Shown here: positions 3,742 to 59,228 of the stretch, one piece after another
Layout: every line of letters starts with the position of its first letter
How positions within the stretch are numbered: position 1 is the stretch's first letter
Source: Candidatus Nealsonbacteria bacterium
GTDB lineage: Bacteria > Patescibacteriota > Minisyncoccia > Minisyncoccales > RBG-13-42-11
Reading direction: 5' to 3'
DNA: 64,000 bases
Assembly: GCA_019923655.1 (NCBI GenBank)
Contig: JAHXGL010000001.1
Coordinates: 3,653 to 67,652 of the forward strand
The notes under the pieces: generated by a model
The model's database searches: none
Told to the model about the DNA's origin: nothing
What the model saw: the letters and a program-made list of their open reading frames with translations, nothing else
Translations under genes and position numbers: made by a program

Positions 3742-3765
3742 GAGTGTTCAAGTCCACACTCCTAA
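3738..3765. terminator. Hairpin TTAGGAGTGT-N8-ACACTCCTAA overlapping the stop codon of the SBP gene
   Basis: 10-bp stem read directly. The same AGGAGTGTG...CACACTCCT arms occur at 40509-40538. No clear U-tract. Confidence 0.45.
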
Positions 3766-3792
3766 GATTGACAAGGTTTTTGTAAATGATAA

Positions 3793-3827
3793 GGTAGAAG
3801 GTAGAAGGTAGAAGGTAGAAGGTAGAG
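3793..3827. repeat. Heptamer microsatellite (GGTAGAA)x4 plus GGTAGAG
   Basis: Five exact-period 7-nt units read directly, 29 nt upstream of the GH130 gene ATG. Confidence 0.9.
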
Positions 3828-3855
3828 AGCGCCTAAGGGGTCAGACTTCACTAAT

Positions 3856-5853
3856 ATGCAGTTGGAGCGTTATAAAAACAATCCTATTTTAGAGCCGAGA
3901 AAAGAGCATGCCTGGGAAACAGGAGGTGTTTTTAATCCAAGCGTAATTTACGAACAAGGAAAAGTCTATATTGTTTATCGGGCTTTTTCTAAAGATCATA
4001 CTTCTAGTTTAGGTTTGGCAATTAGCAAGGACGGATTTAACATTGACGAGAGATTGCCAGAACCGATTTATAAGCCGCGAGAAAGTTTTGAAAAAAAAGC
4101 TAAACCAGGGGTTTGGTCGGGATGCGAAGACCCGAGAATTACTAAAATAGGCGACCGGTTTTATATGTGTTATACCGCGTTTGATGGAGTTCATCCAACC
4201 AGAGTCGCTCTAACATCAATAAAAGTAAAAGATTTTCTCGCTTTTCGCTGGAAATGGGAAAAACCGGTTTTAATTTCACCGCCAGGCATAGATGATAAAA
4301 ACGCTTGTATTCTGCCTCAAAAAATTAAAGGGAAATATTTTATTTTTCATCGATTTCATCCCTGTATTTGGATTGATTCAGTTAAAGATTTAAATTTCAA
4401 AAAAGACACTTGGATTAAAGGAAGTTGTTGGTTTATGCCGAGAACGGATAAATGGGATAGCCGAAAAATCGGCATTGGTCCGGTGCCGATAAAAACAAAA
4501 CAGGGCTGGCTTTTGATTTATCACGGCCTTTCTGAACAAGATAGAAAATACCGATTAGGCGCAATGCTATTAGATCTTAAAGACCCTTCCAGGGTTCTTT
4601 GCCGGCCAAATAATTTTATTTTGGAACCGCAGCAGGACTACGAAAAACAAGGAGTAGTTCCTAATGTTGTTTTTACTAATGGAGCAATAATAATTAAAGA
4701 CCAATTGTTTATTTATTACGGCGCCGCGGACAATGTTATCGGACTTGCCACAGTGAATCTAAATGAATTTTTGAAAGAATTAACGGAAAAAGCTGATTAT
4801 AAAATTGAACTTATAAGGCACAAACGAAACCCTATCTTAAAACCAAATATAAAAAATTGGTGGGAAGCTGATGCTGTTTTTAATCCTTGCGTTATCAAAG
4901 ATGAAAAAAACATTTTTCATATGGTTTATCGGGCTCATTCTTCTCAATTTTTTGATGAACATAAACCAGGATTTCATATTTCTTTTTTAGGATATGCCAA
5001 TAGTAAAAATGGAAGTACTTTTAAAAATCGTCGTCTATTTTTTAAGCCAGAGCATAAATGGGAATATTTTGGCTGTGAAGACCCAAGAATAACTAAATTT
5101 GGAAATCAGTACTTTATTTTTTATACCGCTGTTTCTCATTTTCCTTCTTCGCAAGAATATGTTAAAATAGCCTTAGCAACAACTAAGGACTTTAAAACAA
5201 TTACCAAGCATGGCATTGTAACGCCATTTAACGCAAAGTGCATGGTTCTTTTTCCGGAAAGAATCAACGGAAAAATGGTAGCAATTTTTGCTTTAGAGCC
5301 GGACTTGCGGCCATTAAAGACGGGTATTGCTTTTTTTAACGATATTCAAGAAATTTTATCTCAAGAATATTGGGATAAGTGGTGGATTGAAAAGGACCAA
5401 CAAGGTAAAAATATTTTATTTCCCCCAACGCCAGATTTAGAAATTGAAGTGGGCGCCCCTCCTATAAAAACAAAACAGGGCTGGTTGCTGATATTGGCTT
5501 ATATCACAGGAATTAGTCTTCCTGGTCCAGATGTTTTTGGCATCGGCGCCGCGCTTTTAGACCTAAAAGATCCAACTAAGATATTAGCTAAAAGCGATTA
5601 TCCTTTTTTAATTCCTAAAACGCAATACGAGATAAGATATATGCGGCCGAATGCTATTATCTTTCCTTCTGGCGCGGTTGTGAAGAACAAAGAATTATTA
5701 GTCTATTATGGGGCAGGCGACAAAATTTGCTGTTTAGCATTTTATAATTTAGAAAGATTAATAAAAATTTTATTAAAAAGCTCATCTCGCGCTTACTCTT
5801 CAAAATTCGCAGTCTTCCAAACCACGAAGGGGTTTGGAAACGAAGAATTTTGA
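3856..5853 (+). CDS. Tandem-domain glycoside hydrolase family 130-like protein (two GH130/DUF377 modules)
   Basis: NPILEPR..WE..GVFNPSVIYEQGKVYIVYRA and GCEDPRITKIGDRFYMCYTAFDG in the N-half; a second GCEDPRITKFGNQYFIFYTA module in the C-half. The last ~24 codons are encoded by a palindromic repeat. Confidence 0.8.
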   Translation: MQLERYKNNPILEPRKEHAWETGGVFNPSVIYEQGKVYIVYRAFSKDHTSSLGLAISKDGFNIDERLPEPIYKPRESFEKKAKPGVWSGCEDPRITKIGDRFYMCYTAFDGVHPTRVALTSIKVKDFLAFRWKWEKPVLISPPGIDDKNACILPQKIKGKYFIFHRFHPCIWIDSVKDLNFKKDTWIKGSCWFMPRTDKWDSRKIGIGPVPIKTKQGWLLIYHGLSEQDRKYRLGAMLLDLKDPSRVLCRPNNFILEPQQDYEKQGVVPNVVFTNGAIIIKDQLFIYYGAADNVIGLATVNLNEFLKELTEKADYKIELIRHKRNPILKPNIKNWWEADAVFNPCVIKDEKNIFHMVYRAHSSQFFDEHKPGFHISFLGYANSKNGSTFKNRRLFFKPEHKWEYFGCEDPRITKFGNQYFIFYTAVSHFPSSQEYVKIALATTKDFKTITKHGIVTPFNAKCMVLFPERINGKMVAIFALEPDLRPLKTGIAFFNDIQEILSQEYWDKWWIEKDQQGKNILFPPTPDLEIEVGAPPIKTKQGWLLILAYITGISLPGPDVFGIGAALLDLKDPTKILAKSDYPFLIPKTQYEIRYMRPNAIIFPSGAVVKNKELLVYYGAGDKICCLAFYNLERLIKILLKSSSRAYSSKFAVFQTTKGFGNEEF

Positions 5854-7762: not shown

Positions 7763-7785
7763 CTGTCGGGGTCAAACCCCGACAG
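7763..7785. repeat. Palindrome CTGTCGGGGTCAAACCCCGACAG, the reverse-complement orientation of the 2005-2052 units
   Basis: Read directly, 4 nt after tRNA-Leu. Confidence 0.85.
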
Positions 7786-17478: not shown

Positions 17479-20400
17479 TTAGGAGTTAAGCGGGGTAAAG
17501 CCGGTCCCTGCGGGAATAAGCTTTCCAATAATCACATTTTCTTTAAGCCCGTGGAGTTTATCTTCTTTTCCTCTCAATGAAGCGTTGATTAAAACCCGAG
17601 AAGTTTCCTGAAAAGAAGCAGCGGAAAGAAAGCTCTCAGTGGTTAAAGCGACCTTAGAGACGCCAAGCAAAAGAACAATACCCTTGGCTGGCTTTTTTTT
17701 CTCTTTTTTGAGCTGAATGTTCTCTCTTAAAAATTCCGCTTTTTCTACAATTTCCCCAAGTTTAAAAATAGAATCTTCGGAAACAACAATCTTTAAACGA
17801 GAGAACATTTGGCGGCAGATTGTTTCTATGTGTTTGTCATGAAGTGAAACCCCTTGGGAAACATAAATTTTTTGGACTTCTTTGACAATATATTTTTGAG
17901 TTTGTTCAAGCCCAACCAACTTAAATAATTCTTTTAAGTCTAAATTACCCTCGCAGAGTTGCTGGCCTATTTCTATTTCTTGGTTAGGTTCTACTAAAAT
18001 TGCTATATTTTCCGGAATTTTATATTCTAAGATTGAAGACAAACTTTTAGTAGTCCTCCAATTCTTTTTTGTTTCTGACAGCAATTTTTTGCGTTTTTGT
18101 TTTATCTTTATTACCCTTTCAGGAGTTATTTCTATTATTTTTCCTCGGACTTGGGAAATCTTAGCTTTTCCTTTCGGTATTCTAGCTTCAAAAATCTCTT
18201 GAACTCGAGGCAGGCCAAGGGTAATATCACTTTCTCCGGCAACGCCCCCGGAATGGAAAGTTCTCATTGTTAGTTGGGTTCCTGGTTCGCCAATTGACTG
18301 AGCAGCCACAATTCCGGCTGCCTGTCCTATTTCTATTATTTTGTTTTTTCCCATATCCCAACCATAACATTTTTGACAAAGGCCTTTTACTACTTCACAA
18401 GTAAGCGGACTGGCGATTTTTATCTCTTTGATATTAAGACTGACTATTTTATCAGCTTTTTCCCAATCAATAATTTCTCCTTTTTTGCAAACCCCTTTTA
18501 TGTTTTCAAGGCTTATTCTTCCTGAAATTTTATGAATAAAATTCTGGCCAATTTCATCGGCATCTTTTCTTTGGACGATAATTCCTTGTTTGTTTCCGCA
18601 ATCTTTGGTAGTAATGATTATTTCATGGGCAACATCTATCAGTCTTCGGGTGAGATATCCAGCCGCTGCAGTTCGAAGCGCCGTGTCAGCCAGTCCTTTT
18701 CTTGTTCCATGAGTGGAAATAAAATATTCTAAAACATCAAAACCCTGCTTAAAAGAGTTTTTTATGGGCATTTCAATGATTTGACCGGTCGGATTAATAA
18801 CCAAACCTTTCATACCTGCCATTTGAACCGACGGACCCCAGGATCCTTTTGCTCCTGATTCAATGATTTGATAAATTGGCCCATTTTTTGGCAAGGTTTT
18901 CGGGATCAATTCTTCAATTTTGGACTTTGCTTTATTCCAAATTTTAATTACTTTAATAGTTTTTTCTTCTCTTGAGAGAAATCCTTTTTTTAAGTGTCCT
19001 TCAATTTCTTCTACTTCCTTTTCTGCTTCTTTTATAATTTTGGTTTTTTCTAAGGGAATAATTAAATCATCCATTCCCCAGGATATTCCGGACAGGCTGG
19101 CGTATTCAAATCCTAATAGTTTTATTTTATTTAAGAGATCTTGCGTTTTTTCTAAAGGGTATTTTTCAATAGTTTCCCTGCTTATTCTTTCTAAGTCTTT
19201 TATTTTTATTTCTGAATTCTGGAATGGGTAGTTTGAAGGCAGGGCTTGGTTGAAAATAATCCGACCAACCGAAGTTTCAATTAAATCCGTGCGTTTTAGC
19301 GGTTTAACATTTTGTCGGGACAGCCGCGTTTTAATTTTGGTTTTTAAGTCAATTTCGCCAAACTCATAAGCTAACATCGCTTCTTCGGGACTGGTAAAAA
19401 ATTTCTCTGGTTTTAGTGCTTCATCTTCAATTTTAGTTAAATAATAACAACCAAGAGCAATGTCTTGATGGAAAGTAATAACCGGAATACCTGTTGCCGG
19501 TTTTAGAAAATTAGCCGTGGAAAGCATAATTTCTCTAGCTTCTTTTTGGGCAATGGTTGAAAGGGGCAGGTGAACCGCCATTTGATCTCCGTCAAAATCA
19601 GCATTAAAAGCCTTACAGACCATGGGATGAATTTTAATGGCTTCTCCTTCAATTAAAACCGGATAGAAAGCTTGAATACCCAGCCGATGGAGGGTTGGCG
19701 CCCGATTTAATAAAACAACTTTATCTTTTGTTATTTCTTCTAAAATTGCCCAGACCTCATCTATGCCTTCTTCAATTAATTTTGAGGCGCTTCGAACATT
19801 ATAAGCTAGTTCTTTTTCCAAAATCTTTTTAATTATAAATGGCTTAAAAAGTTCCAGAGCCATTTTTTTAGGGAGACCGACTTGGTTAAGTTTTAATTCC
19901 GGACCAACGACAATTACCGACCGACCGGAATAATCAACTCGTTTGCCTAAAAGGTTCTGCCTGAATCGCCCCTGTTTCCCTTTAAGGATGTCAGCTAAAG
20001 ATTTTAGCATTCGCTTTCCGCCGGTCGTGGCAGTGGTCATTGTTCCTTTTCGGGCTTCGTTGTCAATGAGAGCGTCTACTGCTTCCTGGAGCATTCTTTT
20101 TTCATTCCTTAGAATAACTTCAGGCGCTTCTATTTCTAAAAGATATTTTAATCGATTGTTTCGATTAATTACTCGGCGATAAAGGTCGTTTAAATCCGAA
20201 GAAGCATACCGGCCGCCGTCCAGTTGCACCATTGGTCTTAAATCCGGAGGCGATACTGGTAAAAGTGTTAAAAATACCCATTCTGGTCTAATCTCAGCTT
20301 TTAACATTCCCTGGAAAAGTTTTATCCTTTCTAATATTTTTCTTTTAGCCAGGACTTGCCCCGTTAGATAATTTTTATCTAACGGGGCTTGCTCTGTTAG

Positions 20401-21228
20401 ATAATTTTTATCTAACAGGGATTGCCCCGTATAATCTTCGCGGGAGCTACGCGGGGATTGGGTTTTTTCTTTGTCATTTTTTAGTTTAGCTATTTCTTTT
20501 TCCAGGTCAATTTTGGTGCAAAGTTTTCTTAATGTTTCAGCTCCGGTTCCCACTTCAAAAACAGCCCCGTATTTCAGGGAAAGATCATGATATTCATTTT
20601 CAGAAAGAATTTTTAAAGGTTTTAGACTTAAAACTTCTTCTCGGGCTCTATTTTTAGCCTTTTTTAGCTTCTCTGACTCGGTTTTTGCTTTTGCTTTTTT
20701 ATTTTTGAGATTCTTTTGTTTTGACTCGTCTTGGTCTAAGGAACGCAGCGCCTTGTTTTTTCTTTTGTATTCTTTTTCAATCTCTTCCAGGATTTTTTTC
20801 TTAATGTCTAAGTTGACATCAGTAATAACATAGGCGGAGAAATAAATTATTTTTTCAAGCTGAGACACAGGAATATCCAGGATTGCGCCTATTGTTGAGG
20901 GAACGCCTCTTAAAAACCAAATATGGGAGCAGGCCATAGCTAGTTTAATGTGGCCCATTCTTTCGCGCCGCGAAAGAGCTTTTGTTACTTCTACGCCGCA
21001 CCGGTCACAAATTACTCCTTTGTAACGAATTCTTTTATATTTGCCGCAGTAGCACTCGTAATCTTTTGTTGGTCCGAAAATTTTCTCGCAAAACAGCCCA
21101 TCTTTTTCCGGCCTTTGTGTTCTATAATTAATAGTTTCAGGTTTTAAGACCTCTCCGTGAGACCATCTTGATATATCTTCCGGCGAAGCCAGTTTTATTC
21201 TTATTGATTTAATATCAGCAACTCGCAT
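17479..21228 (-). CDS. rpoC: DNA-directed RNA polymerase subunit beta-prime, with a K/E-rich lineage-specific insertion
   Basis: CxCGKY...CDRCGVEV zinc motif, NADFDGDQM catalytic loop, 1249 aa. Confidence 0.98.
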   Translation of the reverse strand: MRVADIKSIRIKLASPEDISRWSHGEVLKPETINYRTQRPEKDGLFCEKIFGPTKDYECYCGKYKRIRYKGVICDRCGVEVTKALSRRERMGHIKLAMACSHIWFLRGVPSTIGAILDIPVSQLEKIIYFSAYVITDVNLDIKKKILEEIEKEYKRKNKALRSLDQDESKQKNLKNKKAKAKTESEKLKKAKNRAREEVLSLKPLKILSENEYHDLSLKYGAVFEVGTGAETLRKLCTKIDLEKEIAKLKNDKEKTQSPRSSREDYTGQSLLDKNYLTEQAPLDKNYLTGQVLAKRKILERIKLFQGMLKAEIRPEWVFLTLLPVSPPDLRPMVQLDGGRYASSDLNDLYRRVINRNNRLKYLLEIEAPEVILRNEKRMLQEAVDALIDNEARKGTMTTATTGGKRMLKSLADILKGKQGRFRQNLLGKRVDYSGRSVIVVGPELKLNQVGLPKKMALELFKPFIIKKILEKELAYNVRSASKLIEEGIDEVWAILEEITKDKVVLLNRAPTLHRLGIQAFYPVLIEGEAIKIHPMVCKAFNADFDGDQMAVHLPLSTIAQKEAREIMLSTANFLKPATGIPVITFHQDIALGCYYLTKIEDEALKPEKFFTSPEEAMLAYEFGEIDLKTKIKTRLSRQNVKPLKRTDLIETSVGRIIFNQALPSNYPFQNSEIKIKDLERISRETIEKYPLEKTQDLLNKIKLLGFEYASLSGISWGMDDLIIPLEKTKIIKEAEKEVEEIEGHLKKGFLSREEKTIKVIKIWNKAKSKIEELIPKTLPKNGPIYQIIESGAKGSWGPSVQMAGMKGLVINPTGQIIEMPIKNSFKQGFDVLEYFISTHGTRKGLADTALRTAAAGYLTRRLIDVAHEIIITTKDCGNKQGIIVQRKDADEIGQNFIHKISGRISLENIKGVCKKGEIIDWEKADKIVSLNIKEIKIASPLTCEVVKGLCQKCYGWDMGKNKIIEIGQAAGIVAAQSIGEPGTQLTMRTFHSGGVAGESDITLGLPRVQEIFEARIPKGKAKISQVRGKIIEITPERVIKIKQKRKKLLSETKKNWRTTKSLSSILEYKIPENIAILVEPNQEIEIGQQLCEGNLDLKELFKLVGLEQTQKYIVKEVQKIYVSQGVSLHDKHIETICRQMFSRLKIVVSEDSIFKLGEIVEKAEFLRENIQLKKEKKKPAKGIVLLLGVSKVALTTESFLSAASFQETSRVLINASLRGKEDKLHGLKENVIIGKLIPAGTGFTPLNS
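20355..20420. repeat. Two tandem 33-nt palindromic units inside rpoC (stem CCCCGTTAGATAA/TTATCTAACGGGG)
   Basis: Read directly; translated in frame as LDKNYLTEQAP/LDKNYLTGQVL. Confidence 0.9.
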
Positions 21229-26651: not shown

Positions 26652-26786
26652 TTATTTGATTGAATCTTCAATTGGAATATTTAACGCTTTCGCAATTTTT
26701 TTCAGCGTTTCTACCGTCGGATTTTGTTGTTTGCCCGCTTCTATGTTGATTATCGTATTATTGGACACATCGGCAAGCCGAGCCAG
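26652..26786 (-). CDS. XRE/C-protein-like HTH remnant (HTH-1) with no canonical start; its 5' end lies in the 49-bp repeat core
   Basis: Manual minus-strand translation gives LARLADVSNNTIINIEAGKQQNPTVETLKKIAKALNIPIEDSIK*. No in-frame ATG/GTG/TTG between that point and the upstream stop. Confidence 0.45.
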   Translation of the reverse strand: MARLADVSNNTIINIEAGKQQNPTVETLKKIAKALNIPIEDSIK

Positions 26787-26862
26787 TTTTCCCGTACAAA
26801 GCGGCGCGAAGCGCCGCCGAAACGCTGGACAAAAAAGAGGAAAGTTTGATACTGGAGCGGGT
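26775..26862. repeat. Direct repeat copy 1 (88 bp): a 49-bp core identical to 29909-29957, a 29-nt diverged spacer, and a 10-nt tRNA-Gly 3'-end fragment (TGGAGCGGGT)
   Basis: Aligned by eye with 29909-29996. The core contains the hairpin GCGGCGC-GAA-GCGCCGC. Confidence 0.9.
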
Positions 26863-29754: not shown

Positions 29755-29967
29755 TTAAACAAAATTACCAATATCTTTTTTATAAATTTTTGCTAACTCT
29801 TTTAATTCGGTAATATCAACCCTTCTCTCGCCTCTTTCTATTTTTGAAATGTAAGATTGGGGCTTTTTTAATCTTTGAGCCACATCTTCTTGTTTTAGGC
29901 GAACAGCTAAGCCGAGCCAGTTTTCCCGTACAAAGCGGCGCGAAGCGCCGCCGAAACAGCAAGCCAA
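29755..29967 (-). CDS. XRE/C-protein-like HTH (HTH-2); start uncertain (TTG at 29967 or GTG at 29883)
   Basis: LKQEDVAQRLKKPQSYISKIERGERRVDITELKELAKIY. The track ORF extends spuriously into tRNA-Gly. Confidence 0.6.
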   Translation of the reverse strand: MACCFGGASRRFVRENWLGLAVRLKQEDVAQRLKKPQSYISKIERGERRVDITELKELAKIYKKDIGNFV

Positions 29968-31405: not shown

Positions 31406-31441
31406 CTGGTATGGGCGTGCCAGACAAAAGTATGGTTCTAG

Positions 31442-31516
31442 TGGGCATGCCAGGACTCGAACCTGGAAACCGCCAAGATATAAGCTTGGTGCTCTAACCA
31501 ATTGAGCTACATGCCC
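31442..31516 (-). tRNA. tRNA-Ile(UAU) (AUA-decoding), with a variable region one nt longer than standard
   Basis: GGGCATG acceptor, D-loop AATTGGTTA, anticodon loop CTTATAT, T-loop TTCGAGT. Confidence 0.75.
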
Positions 31517-34618: not shown

Positions 34619-35383
34619 ATGAATATTATTTGGCACGGACAATCTTGTTTTCAAATTACTATCCAGAAAGGGAAAAACAATTTGGTCAATATTGTTATTG
34701 ATCCTTTTGATGAAACAATTGGCTTGCGAGTTCCCAAGCTGGAGGCCGATATTTTATTAGTTTCTCATAGCCACGCAGACCACAACAATAGAAAAGCAGT
34801 GGTCTCCCCGGCAGGATCAGGGCAAGTTCCTTTTTTAGTTGACGGCCCGGGTGAATATGAAGTAAAAGGAGTTTTCATTCAAGGGATTGATTCATATCAT
34901 GATTCTTTACTTGGCAGAGAAAGGGGATTAAACACCATTTATATTATTGAAGCTGAAGAAATGAAGATTTGCCACCTTGGAGATTTAGGACAAAAAGAAT
35001 TGACCGATGAACAAATTGAGAAGATTAACGAGGTTGATATTTTAATGATTCCGATTGGCGGTCTCTTTACAATTTCAGCCAAAGAGGCAATGAAAATAAT
35101 CTCTCAAATTGAGCCCAGGATCGTTGTCCCGATGCATTATTGCCTTCCAAAGCTAAAAATAGAGGGATTAGAAGATTTAGATAAATTTTTTAAAGCAATC
35201 GGAATAAAAAAAATAGAACCTTTGTCAAAGCTTTCTATTAAGAAAAAAGATATTTCGTCGGAAGAAGCGAGGATAATAGTCTTCCAAATCCGAAAGGATT
35301 TGGAAACGAAGTCTTCCAAACTTCAAAGAAATTTGGAAACGAAGTCTTCCAAATCCGAAAAAATTTGGAAACGAAGTTTTTAG
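34619..35383 (+). CDS. MBL-fold metal-dependent hydrolase (UPF0173-like) with a repeat-encoded C-terminal tail
   Basis: VSHSHADHNN metal motif. The last ~31 codons (IRKDLETKSSKLQRNLETKSSKSEKIWKRSF) come from palindromic units. Confidence 0.75.
   Translation: MNIIWHGQSCFQITIQKGKNNLVNIVIDPFDETIGLRVPKLEADILLVSHSHADHNNRKAVVSPAGSGQVPFLVDGPGEYEVKGVFIQGIDSYHDSLLGRERGLNTIYIIEAEEMKICHLGDLGQKELTDEQIEKINEVDILMIPIGGLFTISAKEAMKIISQIEPRIVVPMHYCLPKLKIEGLEDLDKFFKAIGIKKIEPLSKLSIKKKDISSEEARIIVFQIRKDLETKSSKLQRNLETKSSKSEKIWKRSF
35280..35376. repeat. Three tandem 32-33-nt palindromic units (TCTTCCAAAyC-loop-rATTTGGAAACGAAG)
   Basis: Units at 35280-35311, 35312-35344 and 35345-35376, read directly. Confidence 0.9.
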
Positions 35384-39763: not shown

Positions 39764-39867
39764 GTTTCCAAATCCTTTGGCAGTCTTCCAAACCACGAAG
39801 AGGTTTGGAAACGCAGTCTTCCAAACCACGAAGGATTTGGAAACGAATTTGGAAACGAATTTGAAAG
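39764..39867. repeat. Array of TCTTCCAAACC...GGTTTGGAAACG palindromic units (2 full units plus partial ones)
   Basis: Full units at 39784-39816 and 39817-39847, read directly; the array ends 5 nt before the ATG at 39872. Confidence 0.9.
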
Positions 39868-52913: not shown

Positions 52914-53486
52914 ATGATTCTATCCGACCGAGATATCAAAAAATACCTAAAAGAAGGAAAAATTAAAATTATTCCCGAGCCAAATTTTGAAGAACAATTA
53001 GGTCCTTGTTCTTTGGACTTGCATTTAGGAAATGTTTTCAAATCCTTCAAACCAACTCAATATCCATACTTAGACCTGAAAACAAAAAAGAGTTTTGAAG
53101 AAGTTATGGATGAAACAACAATAGAGGATAACGCGCCTTTTATTTTACAGCCAAAAGGGTTTGTTATTGCCGTAACCAAAGAAGAAATTATTTTACCTGA
53201 TTATATTATGGCTCGATTGGACGGAAGGAGTTCTTTGGGGAGATTGGGGCTGGTAGTTCATTCAACTGCGGCCAGGTTTGACCCTGGTTGGAAAGGGAAA
53301 GCGGTAATGGAGTTGGGCAATCTTGGGATTATGCCGATTATTTTATATGCCGGAATGAGAATTTGCGCTATAACTTTTGAGACGCTTACTAGTCCGGCTG
53401 AAATTCCTTACTTAAAACAGAAAGACCACAAGTATGCCGGACAAAATAATTCTACTGCCAGTAAACTTAACGAAGAGCCCAGATGA
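52914..53486 (+). CDS. dcd: dCTP deaminase
   Basis: MILSDRDIKKYL..., ARLDGRSSLGRLGLVVH, DPGWKG...ELGN. Confidence 0.9.
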   Translation: MILSDRDIKKYLKEGKIKIIPEPNFEEQLGPCSLDLHLGNVFKSFKPTQYPYLDLKTKKSFEEVMDETTIEDNAPFILQPKGFVIAVTKEEIILPDYIMARLDGRSSLGRLGLVVHSTAARFDPGWKGKAVMELGNLGIMPIILYAGMRICAITFETLTSPAEIPYLKQKDHKYAGQNNSTASKLNEEPR

Positions 53487-55093
53487 AACCTTTTTTAACC
53501 CGCAATCTAAAAGTCCAGTTTTTAGGGATAACTCCTGTTTTAAGAGATAAGACAGGAGTTTTAAACCCTCAACAAATTGTTGCCCTCTCAGCTCTTTTGA
53601 CTTTTAAGGGGAAGACAATAAAAAATCTCTTTAAAGAAATTAAAAACAATGGAGAGAATTTAGACGAGAAGATAAAATTAATTCTGCAAAAATCATCTTT
53701 ACGGGGACATGCCTCCATATCAACCACTCCCTCTCTTTGTTTAACCTATGAAGGAAGCAAATTTTTAGATTCTGCCTTAACTGGTATTTATTTTTCTTCT
53801 TCTCTGGTTTCTTCTGGCAGAAGAACAGGAACCATTGAAAAAGATATTGTTTTTCCGAATAAGATTTATTCCAATAAAAAAGCTAAGGGAATATATCAAG
53901 AAACTTCAGAAAAGATTATCAGATTTTTTAATTTTCTTTTATCTCAAGAGGTTAAAAAAGATGAAGCCAGCAAGATTTTACAATACGGCATTTATGGCAC
54001 CGGTATTATTCAGCTACCAATAGAAACAATTATTGGCTTAAAAAGAGAGTACCAGAGAGAGGAAAAATGGATGCCGGAAGAAGTAGGAATTTTACTCAGA
54101 AAAATAGAAAAAGAAGCTAAAAAATTAGGAATTGATTGGCTTTACGCTACCAGAGAAGCAGCGCCCAGAAATGTTTTCCCTTTTCCCAATATATTTAAAG
54201 ACCCCAAAGAAGGAAATTTGGTTAGAGGAATAAAGAAGAAAATAAAACTGGAGCAAGGAGCAAGAGTGGTTTCAACGGATATTTTGATTCCCTCCGAGCT
54301 AAAAAAGAGATTGATTAATTTAGAAAAAAAGACAAAAGAAACTTTTTCTTCTTTAAGAAAAATTAAAAAAGATTGGCAACAGCTCCTTTCTCTGAGACAG
54401 GAAATTTTGAGGGACTATAATTTAGCTTTAAGATTTAAGGTCTTGTCTTCAGCGCCCTGGCGGGTTTGGGGAGAAAAAAAGAGGCATCGGACTTGCCTTC
54501 AAGTTATTGAGTCAATTTATTATTGCGTTGATAGAGCGGCTAAAGTTTTCAGAAAATTTGAGCGGCAAATTAGAAAAGGGAAAATTAACAAGAGAATAAC
54601 AAGAGAGGTTGGGGAAGTTTTTTCTATCCCGCCATCAATAAAACAAAAACAAGAGCTTTTATCTGAATATTTATTAGTTGCGCTAAGGGCTTTTGGGGAT
54701 TATAAAAAGTTAATTAACTTAGGAATCAAACCCAAAGAAGCAATTTTTTTAATTCCCCGAGCAACCAAAATTGATATTTTACAGGAATATGATTTATATA
54801 ATCTTTTGACCGGCTACTATCCCTTGCGGCTTTGTAAGACAGCTGAAGAGGAAATGAGAAGAAATACATTGAAGGAAGTTGCTCAAATTAAAAATGTCTT
54901 GGCTAAAAAAGGCTATGGCTGGTTGAATGGGCTTATTGGTCCCAAGTGTGAGATTATTGGCTTTTGTCCGGAAGAAAAGAGCTGCGCTATGATTAAAACA
55001 TCGGTTAGAAAATATAATGATAAATTTCATCAAGAAATGAAAGAGGAATTGAAAAGATTATTTCAAGAAAATTTAAAAAACTTAGGTGAATAA
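53483..55093 (+). CDS. thyX: Long (536 aa) ThyX-family FAD-dependent thymidylate synthase-like protein: degenerate N-half, canonical-looking C-half
   Basis: N-half: LRGHASIS...EGSKFLDSALT. C-half: KKRHRTCLQVIESIYY (RHR...ES..Y) and IPRATKIDIL...YYPLRLCKTAEEEMR (the ThyX C-terminal motif). Confidence 0.7.
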   Translation: MKPFLTRNLKVQFLGITPVLRDKTGVLNPQQIVALSALLTFKGKTIKNLFKEIKNNGENLDEKIKLILQKSSLRGHASISTTPSLCLTYEGSKFLDSALTGIYFSSSLVSSGRRTGTIEKDIVFPNKIYSNKKAKGIYQETSEKIIRFFNFLLSQEVKKDEASKILQYGIYGTGIIQLPIETIIGLKREYQREEKWMPEEVGILLRKIEKEAKKLGIDWLYATREAAPRNVFPFPNIFKDPKEGNLVRGIKKKIKLEQGARVVSTDILIPSELKKRLINLEKKTKETFSSLRKIKKDWQQLLSLRQEILRDYNLALRFKVLSSAPWRVWGEKKRHRTCLQVIESIYYCVDRAAKVFRKFERQIRKGKINKRITREVGEVFSIPPSIKQKQELLSEYLLVALRAFGDYKKLINLGIKPKEAIFLIPRATKIDILQEYDLYNLLTGYYPLRLCKTAEEEMRRNTLKEVAQIKNVLAKKGYGWLNGLIGPKCEIIGFCPEEKSCAMIKTSVRKYNDKFHQEMKEELKRLFQENLKNLGE

Positions 55094-55106
55094 TGAGTAA
55101 AAAATT

Positions 55107-55712
55107 ATGATTTTAGGGGTAAAAAAACTTTTAGAGCTGGTTAAAAAAAAGCCCAGCACCAGAGCGAAGCTCGGTGCTGGACCAGTCCCGCACCGAAACA
55201 AAGTTTCTGGTGCGGGGAAATTGGTTGAAAATTTGTCTGAAAGAGAACTGAAGAGTCCTGAAGGGGCGGGCTTTGATTTAAGAATAGGCCAGTTATACCA
55301 AATCAAAGGGAAAGGATTTTTAGGGACCGAAGAAAGAGAGACGCCGAAAATGGAATTAATGGCAAAATATGAAGAAGGAAAAATTACAAAGGTATGTTTA
55401 GAACCCGGGACATATTACTCAATGAAAACAGTTGAGGAAGTTAATATGCCGAACAATCTTTTAGCCATAATGACTCCGCGCTCTACTTTATTTCGCTCCG
55501 GAGTTTACATTTTTGGCGGTCAAACTCCGCCCGGATATAAAGGCGGCTTGACAATGGGTATTTATAATTTTAGAAACGAGAAATTTGAGTTGGAAATGGG
55601 TTCGCGAGTTGTCCATATTATGTTTTTTGAAGTAAAGGGAAACACAAATTTATACCGCGGCCAATGGCAAGGCGGTCGAGTTGCCACAAAAAAGAAAGAA
55701 AAACAAATCTAA
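55107..55712 (+). CDS. dCTP deaminase/dUTPase-superfamily protein (second copy) with a 22-codon GC-rich insertion near the N-terminus
   Basis: MILGVKKLLELV N-terminus parallels dcd; GFDLRIG, TPRSTLFRSG, PPGYKGGLTMG. Confidence 0.8.
   Translation: MILGVKKLLELVKKKPSTRAKLGAGPVPHRNKVSGAGKLVENLSERELKSPEGAGFDLRIGQLYQIKGKGFLGTEERETPKMELMAKYEEGKITKVCLEPGTYYSMKTVEEVNMPNNLLAIMTPRSTLFRSGVYIFGGQTPPGYKGGLTMGIYNFRNEKFELEMGSRVVHIMFFEVKGNTNLYRGQWQGGRVATKKKEKQI
55151..55217. repeat. Two adjacent GC-rich hairpins (CCAGCACC.GAGC-GAA-GCTCGGTGCTGG and CCCGCACC-N13-GGTGCGGG), 66-67 nt in total, in frame
   Basis: Read directly; encodes PSTRAKLGAGPVPHRNKVSGAG. Confidence 0.85.
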
Positions 55713-55718
55713 AAATCT

Positions 55719-55748
55719 TTGACATATTAGACACCGAGTGTCTAACAT
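55719..55748 (+). promoter_or_regulatory. TTGACA -35 box followed by the palindrome ATaTTAGACAC-CGA-GTGTCTAACAT (contains a TAACAT -10-like hexamer 18 nt after the -35)
   Basis: Read directly, upstream of the orphan ORF. Confidence 0.5.
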
Positions 55749-55788: not shown

Positions 55789-56568
55789 ATGTTAGAAAAA
55801 TTTAAAGGCGAGGTTCCATTACAGGGAAAAGAGATTTCACCACAAGAAAAAATTGAAGGGGTTGAGCAGCCGAAAATTTCTGAACACCTCTCATTTTTGG
55901 AAAAATCTGTTCATCGATATAGGGGACTGGATCAATCTAAGACAGAACAGCTATTTCGTAATGCTTTTGAAAAATTGCCTAAAAGTAAGCAAAAAACAAT
56001 TTCATTGGAACTCCAAGCTCTTGGTATTGAAATTGACACACTTGAAAAACAAGATATTGAAATTTCGCCTGTCTGGCGATCAGAAATAAGCAATCGTATT
56101 TTAGGCGCCATAGAGAAGAGTGGAGTGGTGGCGAGCGCCAAAGAGGGCGGAGTTGATAGAACAAGAAAACAAGTGGGTGAAGTAGCAGAGAAAGCAGCGG
56201 CTTATTTGATTGAATATGAAACGTTTGCGCAAAGCGTCAAGGATAAATCAGGCAACACGAAAAAAAGCGTAGAATATCTGTTGGCTATATCTTCCGGTAT
56301 TAAACAAGAGCTTGGGCGATTGCAATTAACCGATGTGTCTTCCGCTCAATCGCAAAATGAATTAAAAGATGAGCGCGAGGCGCGATATCCTGTTATTACA
56401 AACGTTTCTTATTTTTACCGCGATATTGATAACGCAATTTATATGGAAGGTCTTATCGGATTTTCTACCCTCAATAAACTCTTAAAAGAATTTTGTTCCG
56501 CCAAGGAATATTTAGAAAAGACTGTTTTACAAACCAAGGCAAAAAAGGCAAAAAGGGCAAAAAAGTGA
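55789..56568 (+). CDS. Hypothetical soluble protein (259 aa) with a Lys-rich C-terminus
   Basis: The ATG at 55789 is preceded by AAGGAAAGGA; the track start at 55738 lies inside the palindrome. Confidence 0.55.
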   Translation: MLEKFKGEVPLQGKEISPQEKIEGVEQPKISEHLSFLEKSVHRYRGLDQSKTEQLFRNAFEKLPKSKQKTISLELQALGIEIDTLEKQDIEISPVWRSEISNRILGAIEKSGVVASAKEGGVDRTRKQVGEVAEKAAAYLIEYETFAQSVKDKSGNTKKSVEYLLAISSGIKQELGRLQLTDVSSAQSQNELKDEREARYPVITNVSYFYRDIDNAIYMEGLIGFSTLNKLLKEFCSAKEYLEKTVLQTKAKKAKRAKK

Positions 56569-56595
56569 CATGTTAGACACCGAGTGTCTAACATG
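56565..56595 (+). promoter_or_regulatory. GTGACA followed by the perfect 27-nt palindrome CATGTTAGACAC-CGA-GTGTCTAACATG, upstream of tmk
   Basis: Read directly; a TATAAT hexamer also occurs at 56618-56623, 6 nt before the tmk ATG. Confidence 0.5.
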
Positions 56596-57205: not shown

Positions 57206-57245
57206 AGAAATTAAAAGCATTCTTGAGGAGTGCCGATAATATTTG

Positions 57246-59228
57246 ATGATTTCTAAAACCGATCCAAAAATTTACAATTTAATCAAAAAAGAAATTATTC
57301 GCCAAAAAAACGGCTTGTCTTTAATTGCTTCTGAAAATTTTGCCAGCCAAGCTGTTTTAGAAGCAATGGGGACTGGCTTAAGCAATAAATATTCTGAAGG
57401 GTATCCGGGAAAGAGGTATTATGGCGGCAATGAATTTATTGACCAAATTGAAACAATAGCCATTGAACGGGCTAAAAAATTGTTCAAGGCGGAACATGCC
57501 AATGTTCAGCCCCATTCCGGCTCTCAAGCAAATGCCGCGGTTTATCTGGCGCTCCTAAATTACCGAGACAAAATTTTAGGCATTGATTTGTCAGCTGGCG
57601 GGCATTTGACCCATGGCTCTCTGGTTAATTTTTCCGGCCAGCTCTATAATTTTTCTTATTATGGCGTAGATTCTAAAACAGAAAAAGTTGACATAAGAGA
57701 AGTGGAGAAAATAGCTTTAAGGTTTTTACCAAAATTAATTATTGTAAGCACGACTGCTTATTCCCGGATACTTGAATTCAGAAAATTCAGAAAGATTGCC
57801 GATAAAGTAAAGTCCTATTTAATGGCTGATATTGCTCATATTGCCGGCTTGGTAACAGCCGGCCTTCATCCGCATCCTTTTCCTTATTGCGATGTGGTAA
57901 CGACCACTACTCATAAAACATTAAGAGGTCCTCGCGGCGGATTGATTTTATCTAAAATCAAAGACAGAATAGACCCAAGAGGGAAAATGAATTTAGCTCA
58001 GAAAATTGATAAAGCGGTTTTTCCGGGAATACAGGGAGGGCCATTAGACCATGTTATTGCCGCCAAAGCAGTTTGTTTTTTGGAAGCAATGAAGCCATCT
58101 TTCAAAAAATATCAAAAACAGATTATTTTGAACGCCAAAGCAATGGCTGATGAGTTTCAAAAACAAGGGATTAGAGTGGTTAGCGACGGGACAGACAATC
58201 ATTTAATGGTTATAGATATTTCTCCTTTTAATGTTGGTTCTAAACTAATTCAGGATGAATTGGATAAAGTCGGCATTTATGTTAATCGCAACGCTATTCC
58301 TTTTGACAAAAGACCGCCTTACAATCCTTCAGGAATCAGATTGGGTTCGCCAACCATAACAACCATGGGCTTAAGAGAAAAAGAATGTCGGCAGGTAGTG
58401 AAATTAATTGTTGCTCTAATAAAAAATATAGAAACACAGAAAATAAAAACAGAGATCAAGAAAGAGGTAAAGAAATTGGTTAAAAATTATAGAAATTGTC
58501 AAAAACGCAGTTTTAGATTAAAGAGTATCAAAATGAAAAACATTGCTAAGATTATTGACCAAACTTTTCTAAAAAAAGGAGCACTAGATGAAGAAATAAA
58601 GAAAATTGCCGAGGAAGCAAAAGAGTATAATTTTCGGGCATTTTGCGTTCTTCCGGAGCATACTGAATTAGCCAAAGAAATACTTAAACATACTGATGTC
58701 AAGGTAACTACCCTGATTGACGAACCAACAGGGGCAAGTCCTACTGAACAAAGAAAAAAAATGGTTAACAAAGCTAAAATAGATGGCAGTGATGAAATAG
58801 AATTGGTAATGAAAATAGATGATTTCAAAAATAAGAAATATAAAGAGGTTTTAGAGGACTTAGAAGAACTCTGTCCAATTCTGCCAACGAAAGTAATTAT
58901 TGGCTCGGGTTATTTGACTGATCAAGAGATAAAAAAGGCGTCAGAAATGACCAAACAAGCCAAAGCAATTTGTGTTAAAACCGCTACTGTGGATGACCCT
59001 TTGGACAGTTCAGAATTAAAAGAAAAAGCTAAACACATCAGAATAATGAAGGAAACAGCTCCTGGTTTACTAATAAAAGCGTCTGGAGCAGTCCGAACTT
59101 TAGCTGACTTAGAAATAATGCTCGCGGCCGGCGCTGATATTATTGGCACAAGCTCGGGCAAGGAAATAGTAGATGAGGCCCATGGAAAAGAGGTAAAAGA
59201 AACAAAAGACAATAGAATAGTGGAATAA
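57246..59228 (+). CDS. glyA: Serine hydroxymethyltransferase fused in frame to a DeoC-type (deoxyribose-phosphate aldolase family) domain
   Basis: SHMT: LIASENF, YSEGYPGKRYYGG, TTTTHKTLRGPRGG (PLP Lys). There is no stop codon before the DeoC-like domain, which begins at the internal ATG 58533: IDQTFLK..., VKT(A), IKASGAVRT...GADIIGTSSG. Confidence 0.85.
   Translation: MISKTDPKIYNLIKKEIIRQKNGLSLIASENFASQAVLEAMGTGLSNKYSEGYPGKRYYGGNEFIDQIETIAIERAKKLFKAEHANVQPHSGSQANAAVYLALLNYRDKILGIDLSAGGHLTHGSLVNFSGQLYNFSYYGVDSKTEKVDIREVEKIALRFLPKLIIVSTTAYSRILEFRKFRKIADKVKSYLMADIAHIAGLVTAGLHPHPFPYCDVVTTTTHKTLRGPRGGLILSKIKDRIDPRGKMNLAQKIDKAVFPGIQGGPLDHVIAAKAVCFLEAMKPSFKKYQKQIILNAKAMADEFQKQGIRVVSDGTDNHLMVIDISPFNVGSKLIQDELDKVGIYVNRNAIPFDKRPPYNPSGIRLGSPTITTMGLREKECRQVVKLIVALIKNIETQKIKTEIKKEVKKLVKNYRNCQKRSFRLKSIKMKNIAKIIDQTFLKKGALDEEIKKIAEEAKEYNFRAFCVLPEHTELAKEILKHTDVKVTTLIDEPTGASPTEQRKKMVNKAKIDGSDEIELVMKIDDFKNKKYKEVLEDLEELCPILPTKVIIGSGYLTDQEIKKASEMTKQAKAICVKTATVDDPLDSSELKEKAKHIRIMKETAPGLLIKASGAVRTLADLEIMLAAGADIIGTSSGKEIVDEAHGKEVKETKDNRIVE

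Follow-up and report, generated by a model that had tools for sequence, protein, structure and literature searches.

The question raised by this locus is why two strong GC-rich hairpins should lie close to the start of an otherwise AT-rich gene, and whether they belong to the encoded protein or to a structure that precedes it. The locus comes from Candidatus Nealsonbacteria (GCA_019923655.1, contig JAHXGL010000001.1, positions 3,653-67,652), and these 64 kb are referred to here as the window. The gene is the second dcd-like gene of a cluster with the order dcd / thyX-like / dut-like / tmk / glyA. The original prediction placed a double hairpin of 66-67 nucleotides (nt) at 55151-55217 within it and left two options, either that the gene tolerates 22 additional codons or that its true start lies downstream and the hairpins form part of a 5' untranslated region (UTR). 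It is apparent that the hairpins are an in-frame insertion into the dcd/dut-like gene. They belong to a family of dispersed repeats that occurs in part of the Patescibacteria, and its copies are mostly intragenic and overwhelmingly on one strand and in one codon phase. The features concerned are given below, with scores from R1, a covariance model of the double-hairpin structure built here from copies of the family.

55107-55712, plus strand: host gene of the DCD/dUTPase family, 201 amino acids (aa); Pfam DCD 5.2e-21, dUTPase 3.7e-9.
55107-55151, plus strand: N-terminal 15 codons (MILGVKKLLELVKKK), 5' of the insert; conserved, part of the protein.
55143-55151, plus strand: A-run target AAAAAAAAG, directly 5' of the insert, its final codon AAG being a Lys of the host protein.
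55152-55217, plus strand: 66-nt double-hairpin element, 22 codons (PSTRAKLGAGPVPHRNKVSGAG), residues 16-37; R1 98.2 bits, E 3.4e-19.
55153-55180, plus strand: hairpin 1, CCAGCACC-A-GAGC[GAA]GCTC-GGTGCTGG, 12 pairs, bulged A at 55161, GAA loop at 55166-55168.
55181-55186, plus strand: linker ACCAGT, which together with adjacent bases makes the near-palindrome GGACCAGTCC.
55187-55216, plus strand: hairpin 2, CCCGCACC-GAAAC[AAA]GTTTC-T-GGTGCGGG, 13 pairs, AAA loop at 55200-55202, bulged T at 55208.

The predicted block is present and is exactly 66 nt long, although it had been started one base early, as 55151 is the G of the host AAG codon. It sits in frame within the open reading frame (ORF) 55107-55712, between K15 and K38. 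The strength of the hairpins was judged correctly, with a GC content of 0.57-0.60 in the insert against 0.36 over the whole window, and a minimum free energy for RNA of 55140-55230 (91 nt) of -46.8 kcal/mol against -22.6 +/- 3.4 for 200 dinucleotide shuffles, none of which equalled it (z -7.2). The minus strand of the element folds equally strongly, DNA parameters give a z of -8.0, and no stop codon is found in any of the six frames. Hairpins 1 and 2 are approximately reverse complements of each other, which makes the element an inverted doublet, and its reverse strand scores 59 bits with R1. Rfam 15 gives no match to the window at the gathering threshold except tRNAs, the best sub-threshold match at the insert region reaching 17 bits where the gathering score is 49.5.

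The comparison with orthologues, which had been proposed as a check along with the prediction, is what decides between the two options. The host protein has the same sequence as NCBI MBZ1348205.1 of a Candidatus Nealsonbacteria metagenome-assembled genome (MAG), for which the NCBI start is ATG 55107, and its relatives in the PDB are dCTP deaminases and dUTPases. Almost all of the 120 best homologues, amounting to more than 100 orthologues, are 179 aa long, that is 201 minus 22, and their alignments show a clean 22-residue gap at K15/K38 flanked on the left by M[IV]LG[VI]KKLLxLVKEK and on the right by KLVENLSERE, both conserved. This gap and the ORF together confirm that 22 codons were added in frame after codon 15. 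G4, L11 and V12 are conserved in at least 90% (alignments A1 and A4), and in 80 of 80 species-representative Patescibacteria loci the N-terminal segment is fused straight to the KLVENL core. The parallel drawn earlier between this N-terminus and that of the neighbouring dcd gene stands up to alignment and extends to all the orthologues. In the closest insert-free relative, locus L204 (protein P0003), the empty site reads GTTAAAAAAAAG joined directly to AAACTGGTT, and the filled site of the window reads GTTAAAAAAAAG[66 nt]AAATTGGTT, an exact insertion with neither duplication nor loss at the junctions; the 45 nt upstream of the insert carry 4 substitutions relative to L204, every one of them synonymous. 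An AlphaFold2 model of the host protein has a helix at residues 5-13 and a confident beta core, with the predicted local distance difference test score (pLDDT) below 50 at residues 16-35. Because the 15 N-terminal codons are conserved, the start lies upstream and the hairpins are a true in-frame insertion and not a 5' UTR structure.

A start at TTG 55221 or 55233, which would make the hairpins a 5' UTR or attenuator structure separating thyX from the dut-like gene, is on this evidence highly improbable. The public gene call P0002 (159 aa) does begin at TTG 55233, and GGGGA is found immediately 5' of TTG 55221. However, P0002 is the only shorter call, and it is uninformative on the true start because it begins directly after a run of 248 N in another assembly. 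The upstream codons are intact and in frame as well as conserved, hairpin 2 is followed by AAATTGG without a T-run on the sense strand, no terminator is called there, and elsewhere the element is found deep within long ORFs (PNPase and UvrB). It is therefore the option of a tolerated insert that is supported, by the 179-aa orthologues, the conserved 15 codons and the synonymous-only changes against L204.

The run of N also bears on whether the insert is real, as it could be an artefact of assembly or gap closing in which reads from a repeat copy of another organism were misplaced. The sister-assembly scaffold BBPG01000170.1, 99.97% identical to the window, has its 248 N at positions 3744-3991 of our record L203, which corresponds to window 55056-55223. 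A further contig, BBPE01000900.1 (L001), is about 76% identical to the window across dcd-thyX-dut and yet 100% identical over 55052-55222 (171 nt), which looks like a mosaic. Such an artefact in the window itself is nevertheless very unlikely, since the encoded N-terminus looks native and is identical as protein to that of the closest relative P0003, the two junctions keep the frame exactly and lie at the A-run target characteristic of family members, and the insert is present in an independent MAG assembly and in the NCBI annotation. In addition, GC palindromes of other kinds are found at this codon in related lineages. A tract of co-conversion or homing in L001 was considered as a source of its identical patch and rejected, as the patch coincides with the gap of the sister assembly, encodes an N-terminus of the window type and has no independent record (L172 is the same contig), and other orthologous pairs show no raised flank identity; the patch is probably a repeat-induced mosaic of assembly or gap closing.

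The other palindromes at the dut-like site are a GC-rich insert of 39 nt in L002 at 632-670 (TTTRPPPSRQSGP, with the hairpin CCCGCCAAAGCGGG) and a 15-nt insert in L029 at about 2530-2560 that holds a perfect 14-nt palindrome, CCGCCAGCTGGCGG. Both stand at the same codon boundary as the element of the window, and this boundary is an insertion hotspot.

The dispersal of the element was surveyed by scanning metagenome contigs with a degenerate two-stem pattern in which about 20 of the 66 positions are fixed, and the counts that follow are among the matches listed. An essentially identical 66-mer is found in dozens of contigs of low GC content (33-46%) with unrelated flanks; the scan also gave chance matches in GC-rich DNA. 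The original prediction had suggested a search for the hairpin sequences, and whilst this did recover them at many metagenome loci it gave no further copy of the family within the 64-kb window. After removal of duplicates there are at least 26 unique copies, with the consensus CCCAGCACCAGAGCrnAGCTCGGTGCTGGACyAGTCCCGCACCGAAACrAAGTTTCTGGTGCGGGG, from which the copy in the window departs only at loop and linker positions. Exactly 66 nt, with CCC at the start and GGGG at the end, are found in 24 of the 26, and the other two have an additional hairpin nested in hairpin 2, giving lengths of 72 and 81 nt. With R1 additional copies are found on the carrier contigs, up to three within 1.7-7 kb, as well as single-hairpin variants and variants of 63, 69 and 72 nt. 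The copies that lie in long ORFs, taking pattern and R1 matches together, all have lengths that are multiples of three (63, 66, 72 or 81 nt).

Nearly all copies are preceded by AAA or AAG, and the codons that follow them vary. The basal stems are invariant or nearly so across copies, including the third codon positions that the search pattern leaves free, and most of the variation falls in both loops, in the upper part of the hairpin 1 stem and at two positions of the linker, and alters the encoded amino acids. Half of the copies have GGACTAGTCC instead of GGACCAGTCC at the linker, column 32 being C in 12 and T in 12. As the amino acids vary whilst third positions of the basal stems are near-invariant, the constraint acts on the nucleotide sequence rather than on the peptide. 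A search of a collection of 5.8 billion proteins with the 22-mer peptide, as a doubled query of 46 aa, returned no more than 3 short candidates owing to its word index, and on viral contigs none of 16 pattern matches is the element and there is no R1 match.

Two variants within the family are of a different kind. At L166 10965-11030 the interior of hairpin 1 is reverse-complemented, with GAGCTTCGCTCT in place of AGAGCGAAGCTC, and at L100 9128-9193 the loop of hairpin 2 is TTT in place of AAA; such flips suggest processing of a hairpin or cruciform at the level of DNA. The stem pattern also caught by chance a conserved repeat that has no relation to the family, CCCCGCACCCTTTTTAGAAAAAGGGTGCGGGGATCCCCGCACCCTCGAAGGGTGCGGGGATCGGCAAC, which recurs in contigs with a GC content of about 45-57% in several samples (L088, L106, L111, L115, L122, L131, L135, L149, L162, L163, L187 and L195).

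Most copies of the element lie within genuine genes. By ORF analysis 17 of 20 independent intragenic sites have it on the sense strand in phase 0, as in the window, and all 17 encode PSTRA[KE]LGAG[PL]VPHRN[KE]VSGAG; a few other copies are apparently intergenic. The hosts of these 17, by Pfam, are L21, RsmI, a CDC48-like AAA ATPase, PNPase, UvrB, a SAM methyltransferase, IF2, YbeY, a MiaB-like radical SAM enzyme, glutamine synthetase (GlnA), FemAB, a Wzy_C protein, TatD, DegV and the Dcd-like gene of the window, together with two ORFs without a family match, one of them thiolase-like by eye and unconfirmed by Pfam. The three sites in another phase or strand are in genes for a ComF-like protein, an ELP3-like protein and a second DegV. 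The element can lie deep inside its host ORF, near residue 300 in PNPase and near residue 280 in UvrB.

Some of this bias follows from the target, because A-runs are commoner on coding strands and insertion after them gives a bias to the sense strand. However, targeting of A-runs does not suffice to explain the bias in both strand and phase, since on its own it predicts about 64-73% on the sense strand but only 24-26% on the sense strand in phase 0 (45% for GAAAAA), against the 85% observed. With about 25% expected, 17 of 20 has p = 3e-8, and even for the most favourable motif, GAAAAA, p = 3e-4. Therefore selection on the translated product is also needed, and the phase bias together with the multiples-of-three lengths argues for a ribosome that reads through the element. 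The opposite possibility, that the element is lost in the course of expression, excised as a tiny RNA intron or passed over by programmed translational bypassing of the kind seen in T4 gene 60 and the mitochondrial 'byps', leaving a mature protein without the 22 residues, is hardly credible. A stable GC-rich hairpin within an AT-rich gene and, in the window, Lys codons on both sides (AAG before, AAA after) would suit it, but neither a preference for one phase nor lengths in multiples of three would be required by skipping, the element contains no in-frame stop codon, and the 3' flanking codons differ among copies, hence there is no general matched landing codon.

The clearest evidence of movement is from RsmI. 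A filled locus (L093) and an empty one (L221) have flanks that are 96.4% and 96.3% identical and differ by exactly 66 nt, with GGTAAG[66]AATTTGG in the former and GGTAAAAATTTGG in the latter and no duplication of the target. As filled and empty alleles exist between near-identical genomes, the gain or loss of the element has been recent and scarless. Across 18 aligned RsmI orthologues that codon carries an insert in 8 and is empty in 10, and the 8 include a diverged copy (P0132) and a different insert of 14 residues (P0164). Two of the filled orthologues, which were found by protein homology and are thus free of any bias from the pattern, have flanks 67-72% identical to those of L093, whilst their elements are identical to it at 62 and 63 of 66 positions (Fisher p 1e-5 and 1e-7). 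The same pattern, in which diverged orthologues share copies at one codon, is seen in PNPase, the methyltransferase and MiaB. In their loop states, compared for signs of vertical inheritance, orthologous copies differ at 1, 1 and 5 positions against a mean of 4.4 over all pairs, and are not significantly more alike than random pairs. The shared sites may be old insertions that were kept with occasional precise loss, or the result of repeated site-selective insertion.

It might be assumed from this conservation that the doublet is a selected cis-element, either a site for binding or processing by a protein, in mRNA or DNA, or an intrinsic terminator of antisense transcription, kept inside genes by selection on nucleotides. 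In the terminator version, because the element always follows an A-run, an antisense transcript would read hairpin 1 and then U8, and the minus strand of the window does have GCTTTTTTTT after hairpin 1. The basal stems are essentially invariant even at synonymous positions where the flanks are about 30% diverged, and in RsmI, PNPase, the methyltransferase and MiaB several diverged orthologues have the doublet at one and the same codon, as would be expected of such an element. Nevertheless it is an unlikely explanation, as the element is present or absent between near-identical genomes and absent from most orthologues of every host gene, there are decayed copies such as P0132 (PHTRTKFGVGLAPYRNEVSGGG) and other short inserts at the same site, the host genes have no common function, and a simple terminator scan does not call the antisense site.

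The explanation considered probable is that of a palindromic mobile element, non-autonomous, which inserted after an A-run without leaving a scar and is translated as a flexible loop at a permissive site. A copy would have inserted without target-site duplication directly after the A-run Lys codon of the dcd/dut-like gene, and translation would run from ATG 55107 straight through it. The 22 residues so added would make a flexible, hydrophilic and basic loop, rich in Gly, Pro and Ser, between the N-terminal helix and the beta core, which the enzyme presumably tolerates. The element would spread as DNA, probably by way of a single-strand hairpin intermediate, with a trans-acting enzyme that recognises the invariant basal stems, and selection would then purge insertions in other phases or at non-permissive sites. 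The C(RNA)G triloops of the element, like its single bulged bases, are features characteristic of stable hairpins in DNA and of the substrates of HUH enzymes.

A number of points weigh against this explanation. Translation through the insert is a prediction from sequence, and the census of the family rests on a pattern scan that fixes about 20 of 66 positions, with counts among the matches listed. By R1 the window has only one copy, and none was found in 482 kb from 80 other Patescibacteria species, so the Nealsonbacteria genome is not heavily colonised. A crude motif screen for IS200/TnpA in the 516 ORFs of the carrier contigs, which are genome fragments only, gave no transposase. Finally, copies at the same codon are highly conserved where the flanks are about 70% identical, which is unusual for purely selfish, decaying DNA and would be compatible with a functional role or with re-insertion at specific sites. 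A reading that gives more weight to this, and which is possible though rather doubtful, is that the element is an active, scarless, coding-compatible mobile cassette specialised for residence within genes, which its 66 nt, six open frames, insertion after A-runs and precise gain or loss would suit, with stems kept through recognition by a putative dedicated single-strand DNA enzyme, or else a co-opted cis-element such as a protein-binding site or an antisense terminator; if true, this would explain why copies at the same codon are 94-98% identical and their host genes about 70%.

As to whether such elements are already known, the closest phenomenon is that of the Rickettsia palindromic elements (RPE), described by Ogata et al. 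2000 as relayed in PMC2229807 and PMC10969869. These are in-frame, peptide-encoding palindromes in many housekeeping genes, inserted at sites compatible with the fold and function of the protein, which was shown experimentally for guanylate kinase (PMC2229807, PMC10969869). They are 105-146 bp long, with a single long stem-loop, and are restricted to Rickettsia (PMC2229807). The likeness is considerable, in that both are dispersed palindromes of a reduced AT-rich genome, in frame in unrelated conserved housekeeping genes and with a conserved peptide, and the present family occupies many unrelated loci (at least 26 unique copies) with 17 of 20 in frame for one peptide. However, it does not belong to the RPE families proper, as its copies have 66 nt and two tandem hairpins where RPE have terminal inverted repeats, and its host, Candidatus Nealsonbacteria, is of another phylum. 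Scarless presence and absence between 96% identical genomes and the very high conservation of stems across lineages also set it apart from RPE.

REP units are GC-rich imperfect palindromes of 20-40 bp, often in inverted pairs (Di Nocera et al. 2013, PMC3733652), and intragenic REP dimers encode 20-30 amino acids in genes that include uvrA, uvrB and recB (PMC3733652). They are mainly extragenic and carry at one end a tetranucleotide tag, GTAG or CGTC (PMC3733652). The element resembles the REP, BIME and REPIN class in having units of 28 and 30 nt in an inverted dimer, as the score of its reverse strand with R1 also indicates, and in having UvrB as a host. Unlike that class its consensus contains neither GTAG nor CGTC nor the reverse complement of either, and unlike REP most of the family lies within genes, where one phase is preferred. 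The motif screen of the 516 ORFs, again genome fragments only, showed neither a RAYT nor a tyrosine transposase. The element is thus outside both the RPE and the REP families, although the phenomenon matches both.

The ends of the element are inverted, CCCnGCACC and GGTGCnGGG, as in a classical miniature inverted-repeat transposable element, but the two comparisons of empty and filled sites are without duplication. IS200/IS605 elements have subterminal hairpins with an unpaired base in the stem, make no target duplication and excise seamlessly, and their insertion is strand-specific and immediately 3' of a short specific sequence. In IS608-type elements both hairpins have the same orientation on the active strand. 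An element derived from IS200/IS605 would account for the hairpins, for the absence of duplication and for AAA or AAG on the 5' side of nearly all copies; however, the hairpins here are mutually inverted, the A-run target is poorly defined and the 516-ORF screen found no TnpA.

Looser analogues are the GC clusters and double-hairpin elements of organelles, which are likewise short GC-rich mobile hairpins of very AT-rich genomes, polymorphic for presence and absence (PMC4478555). The same paper has yeast GC42 as a mitochondrial GC cluster with a duplicated AG target and cites Paquin et al. 2000 for Allomyces elements with a double-hairpin fold. In that account these elements differ in having a short duplicated target and in being mostly intergenic, and phase-specific occupation of many protein genes is not described there (PMC4478555). 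Nor is the element an intrinsic terminator or 5' UTR hairpin, as it lies inside a conserved ORF with AAATTGG after hairpin 2, or a programmed bypass element, with no stop in any frame and varying 3' flanking codons. Searches of the literature directed at the Candidate Phyla Radiation (CPR) and at Patescibacteria, Parcubacteria and Nealsonbacteria turned up no account of elements of this kind.

Hairpins in the window are not limited to this one. The original prediction saw in the GCGAAGC apex of hairpin 1 a link to terminator-like hairpins elsewhere in the window, and the motif does cap several of them, occurring 12 times against 6.0 expected, a number reached in 1 of 100 shuffles. However, a shared family can be ruled out, as R1 gives those hairpins E values of 0.12 or more, and what is left is a weak resemblance. 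Among the hairpins so capped is that of a 43-nt direct repeat, AGCCAGTTTTCCCGTACAAAGCGGCGCGAAGCGCCGCCGAAAC, at 26781-26823 and 29915-29957, with two more at about 26950 and about 26999 in the same intergenic region. Intergenic GC-rich hairpins of the form CTGTCGGGG-N3-CCCCGACAG at 2027-2055 and 7763-7785 make up a terminator-like repeat family, which is in tandem at 1999-2076 and has one member directly after tRNA-Leu. Hairpins of the form TTCCAAACC-ACGAAG-GGTTTGGAA lie within the ends of ORFs at 5815-5839, 35282-35305, 35331-35354 and 39786-39810, and may be another coding-compatible family or embedded terminators.

A further group is found in the rpoC ORF (17479-21228), where three tandem in-frame hairpins occupy 20309-20463 on the minus strand. 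Two of these, AT-richer copies of CCCCGTTAGATAA[aaa]TTATCTAACGGGG, together form a double hairpin, with an R1 match at 20359-20420 (E 1.6e-4), and the third, at 20416-20463, is GC-rich. They encode ...TQSPRSSREDYTGQSLLDKNYLTEQAPLDKNYLTGQ... directly before the conserved RPEW...PPDLRP motif, and Pfam Rpb1 domain 1 is spread over 422 residues for a profile of 312 positions. With these hairpins the genome has a second family of in-frame hairpins, different from the first.

Around the host gene there are other unusual features. The thyX-like ORF (53483-55093) has 536 aa with its Thy1 domain confined to residues 324-471, and the SHMT ORF (57243-59228) has 661 aa, with SHMT at 4-389 and a C-terminal extension of about 270 residues that resembles deoxyribose-phosphate aldolase by eye only, unconfirmed by Pfam at 1e-5. 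A promoter-like motif, TTGACA-18-TAACAT, overlaps the palindrome TTAGACACCGAGTGTCTAA at window 55719-55748 and 56569-56595 and in L001 at 1484-1524 and 4836-4874. The palindrome flanks on either side a gene of no known function (55789-56568), and is 90-97% identical in L001, which is otherwise about 76% identical to the window; it may be an operator and promoter module. At 31441-31516 on the minus strand ARAGORN finds a tRNA-Ile with a UAU anticodon, an unusual one in bacteria.

The element has practical consequences, as such hairpins break short-read assemblies, leaving in one public scaffold a gap of 248 N exactly at the element, and can yield mosaic contigs, truncated gene calls and inflated apparent novelty of proteins in CPR. 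It also offers a tractable system, in which a short invariant peptide and a covariance model can be used to study scarless movement and the function of added loops. As a mobile element it would be a second, phylogenetically independent case of selfish DNA of the Rickettsia type inside protein-coding genes, and one that falls in the other large group of bacteria that are ultra-small and depend on a host. It would seem from this that where genomes are compact and leave little room between genes, small palindromic elements are driven into coding sequence.

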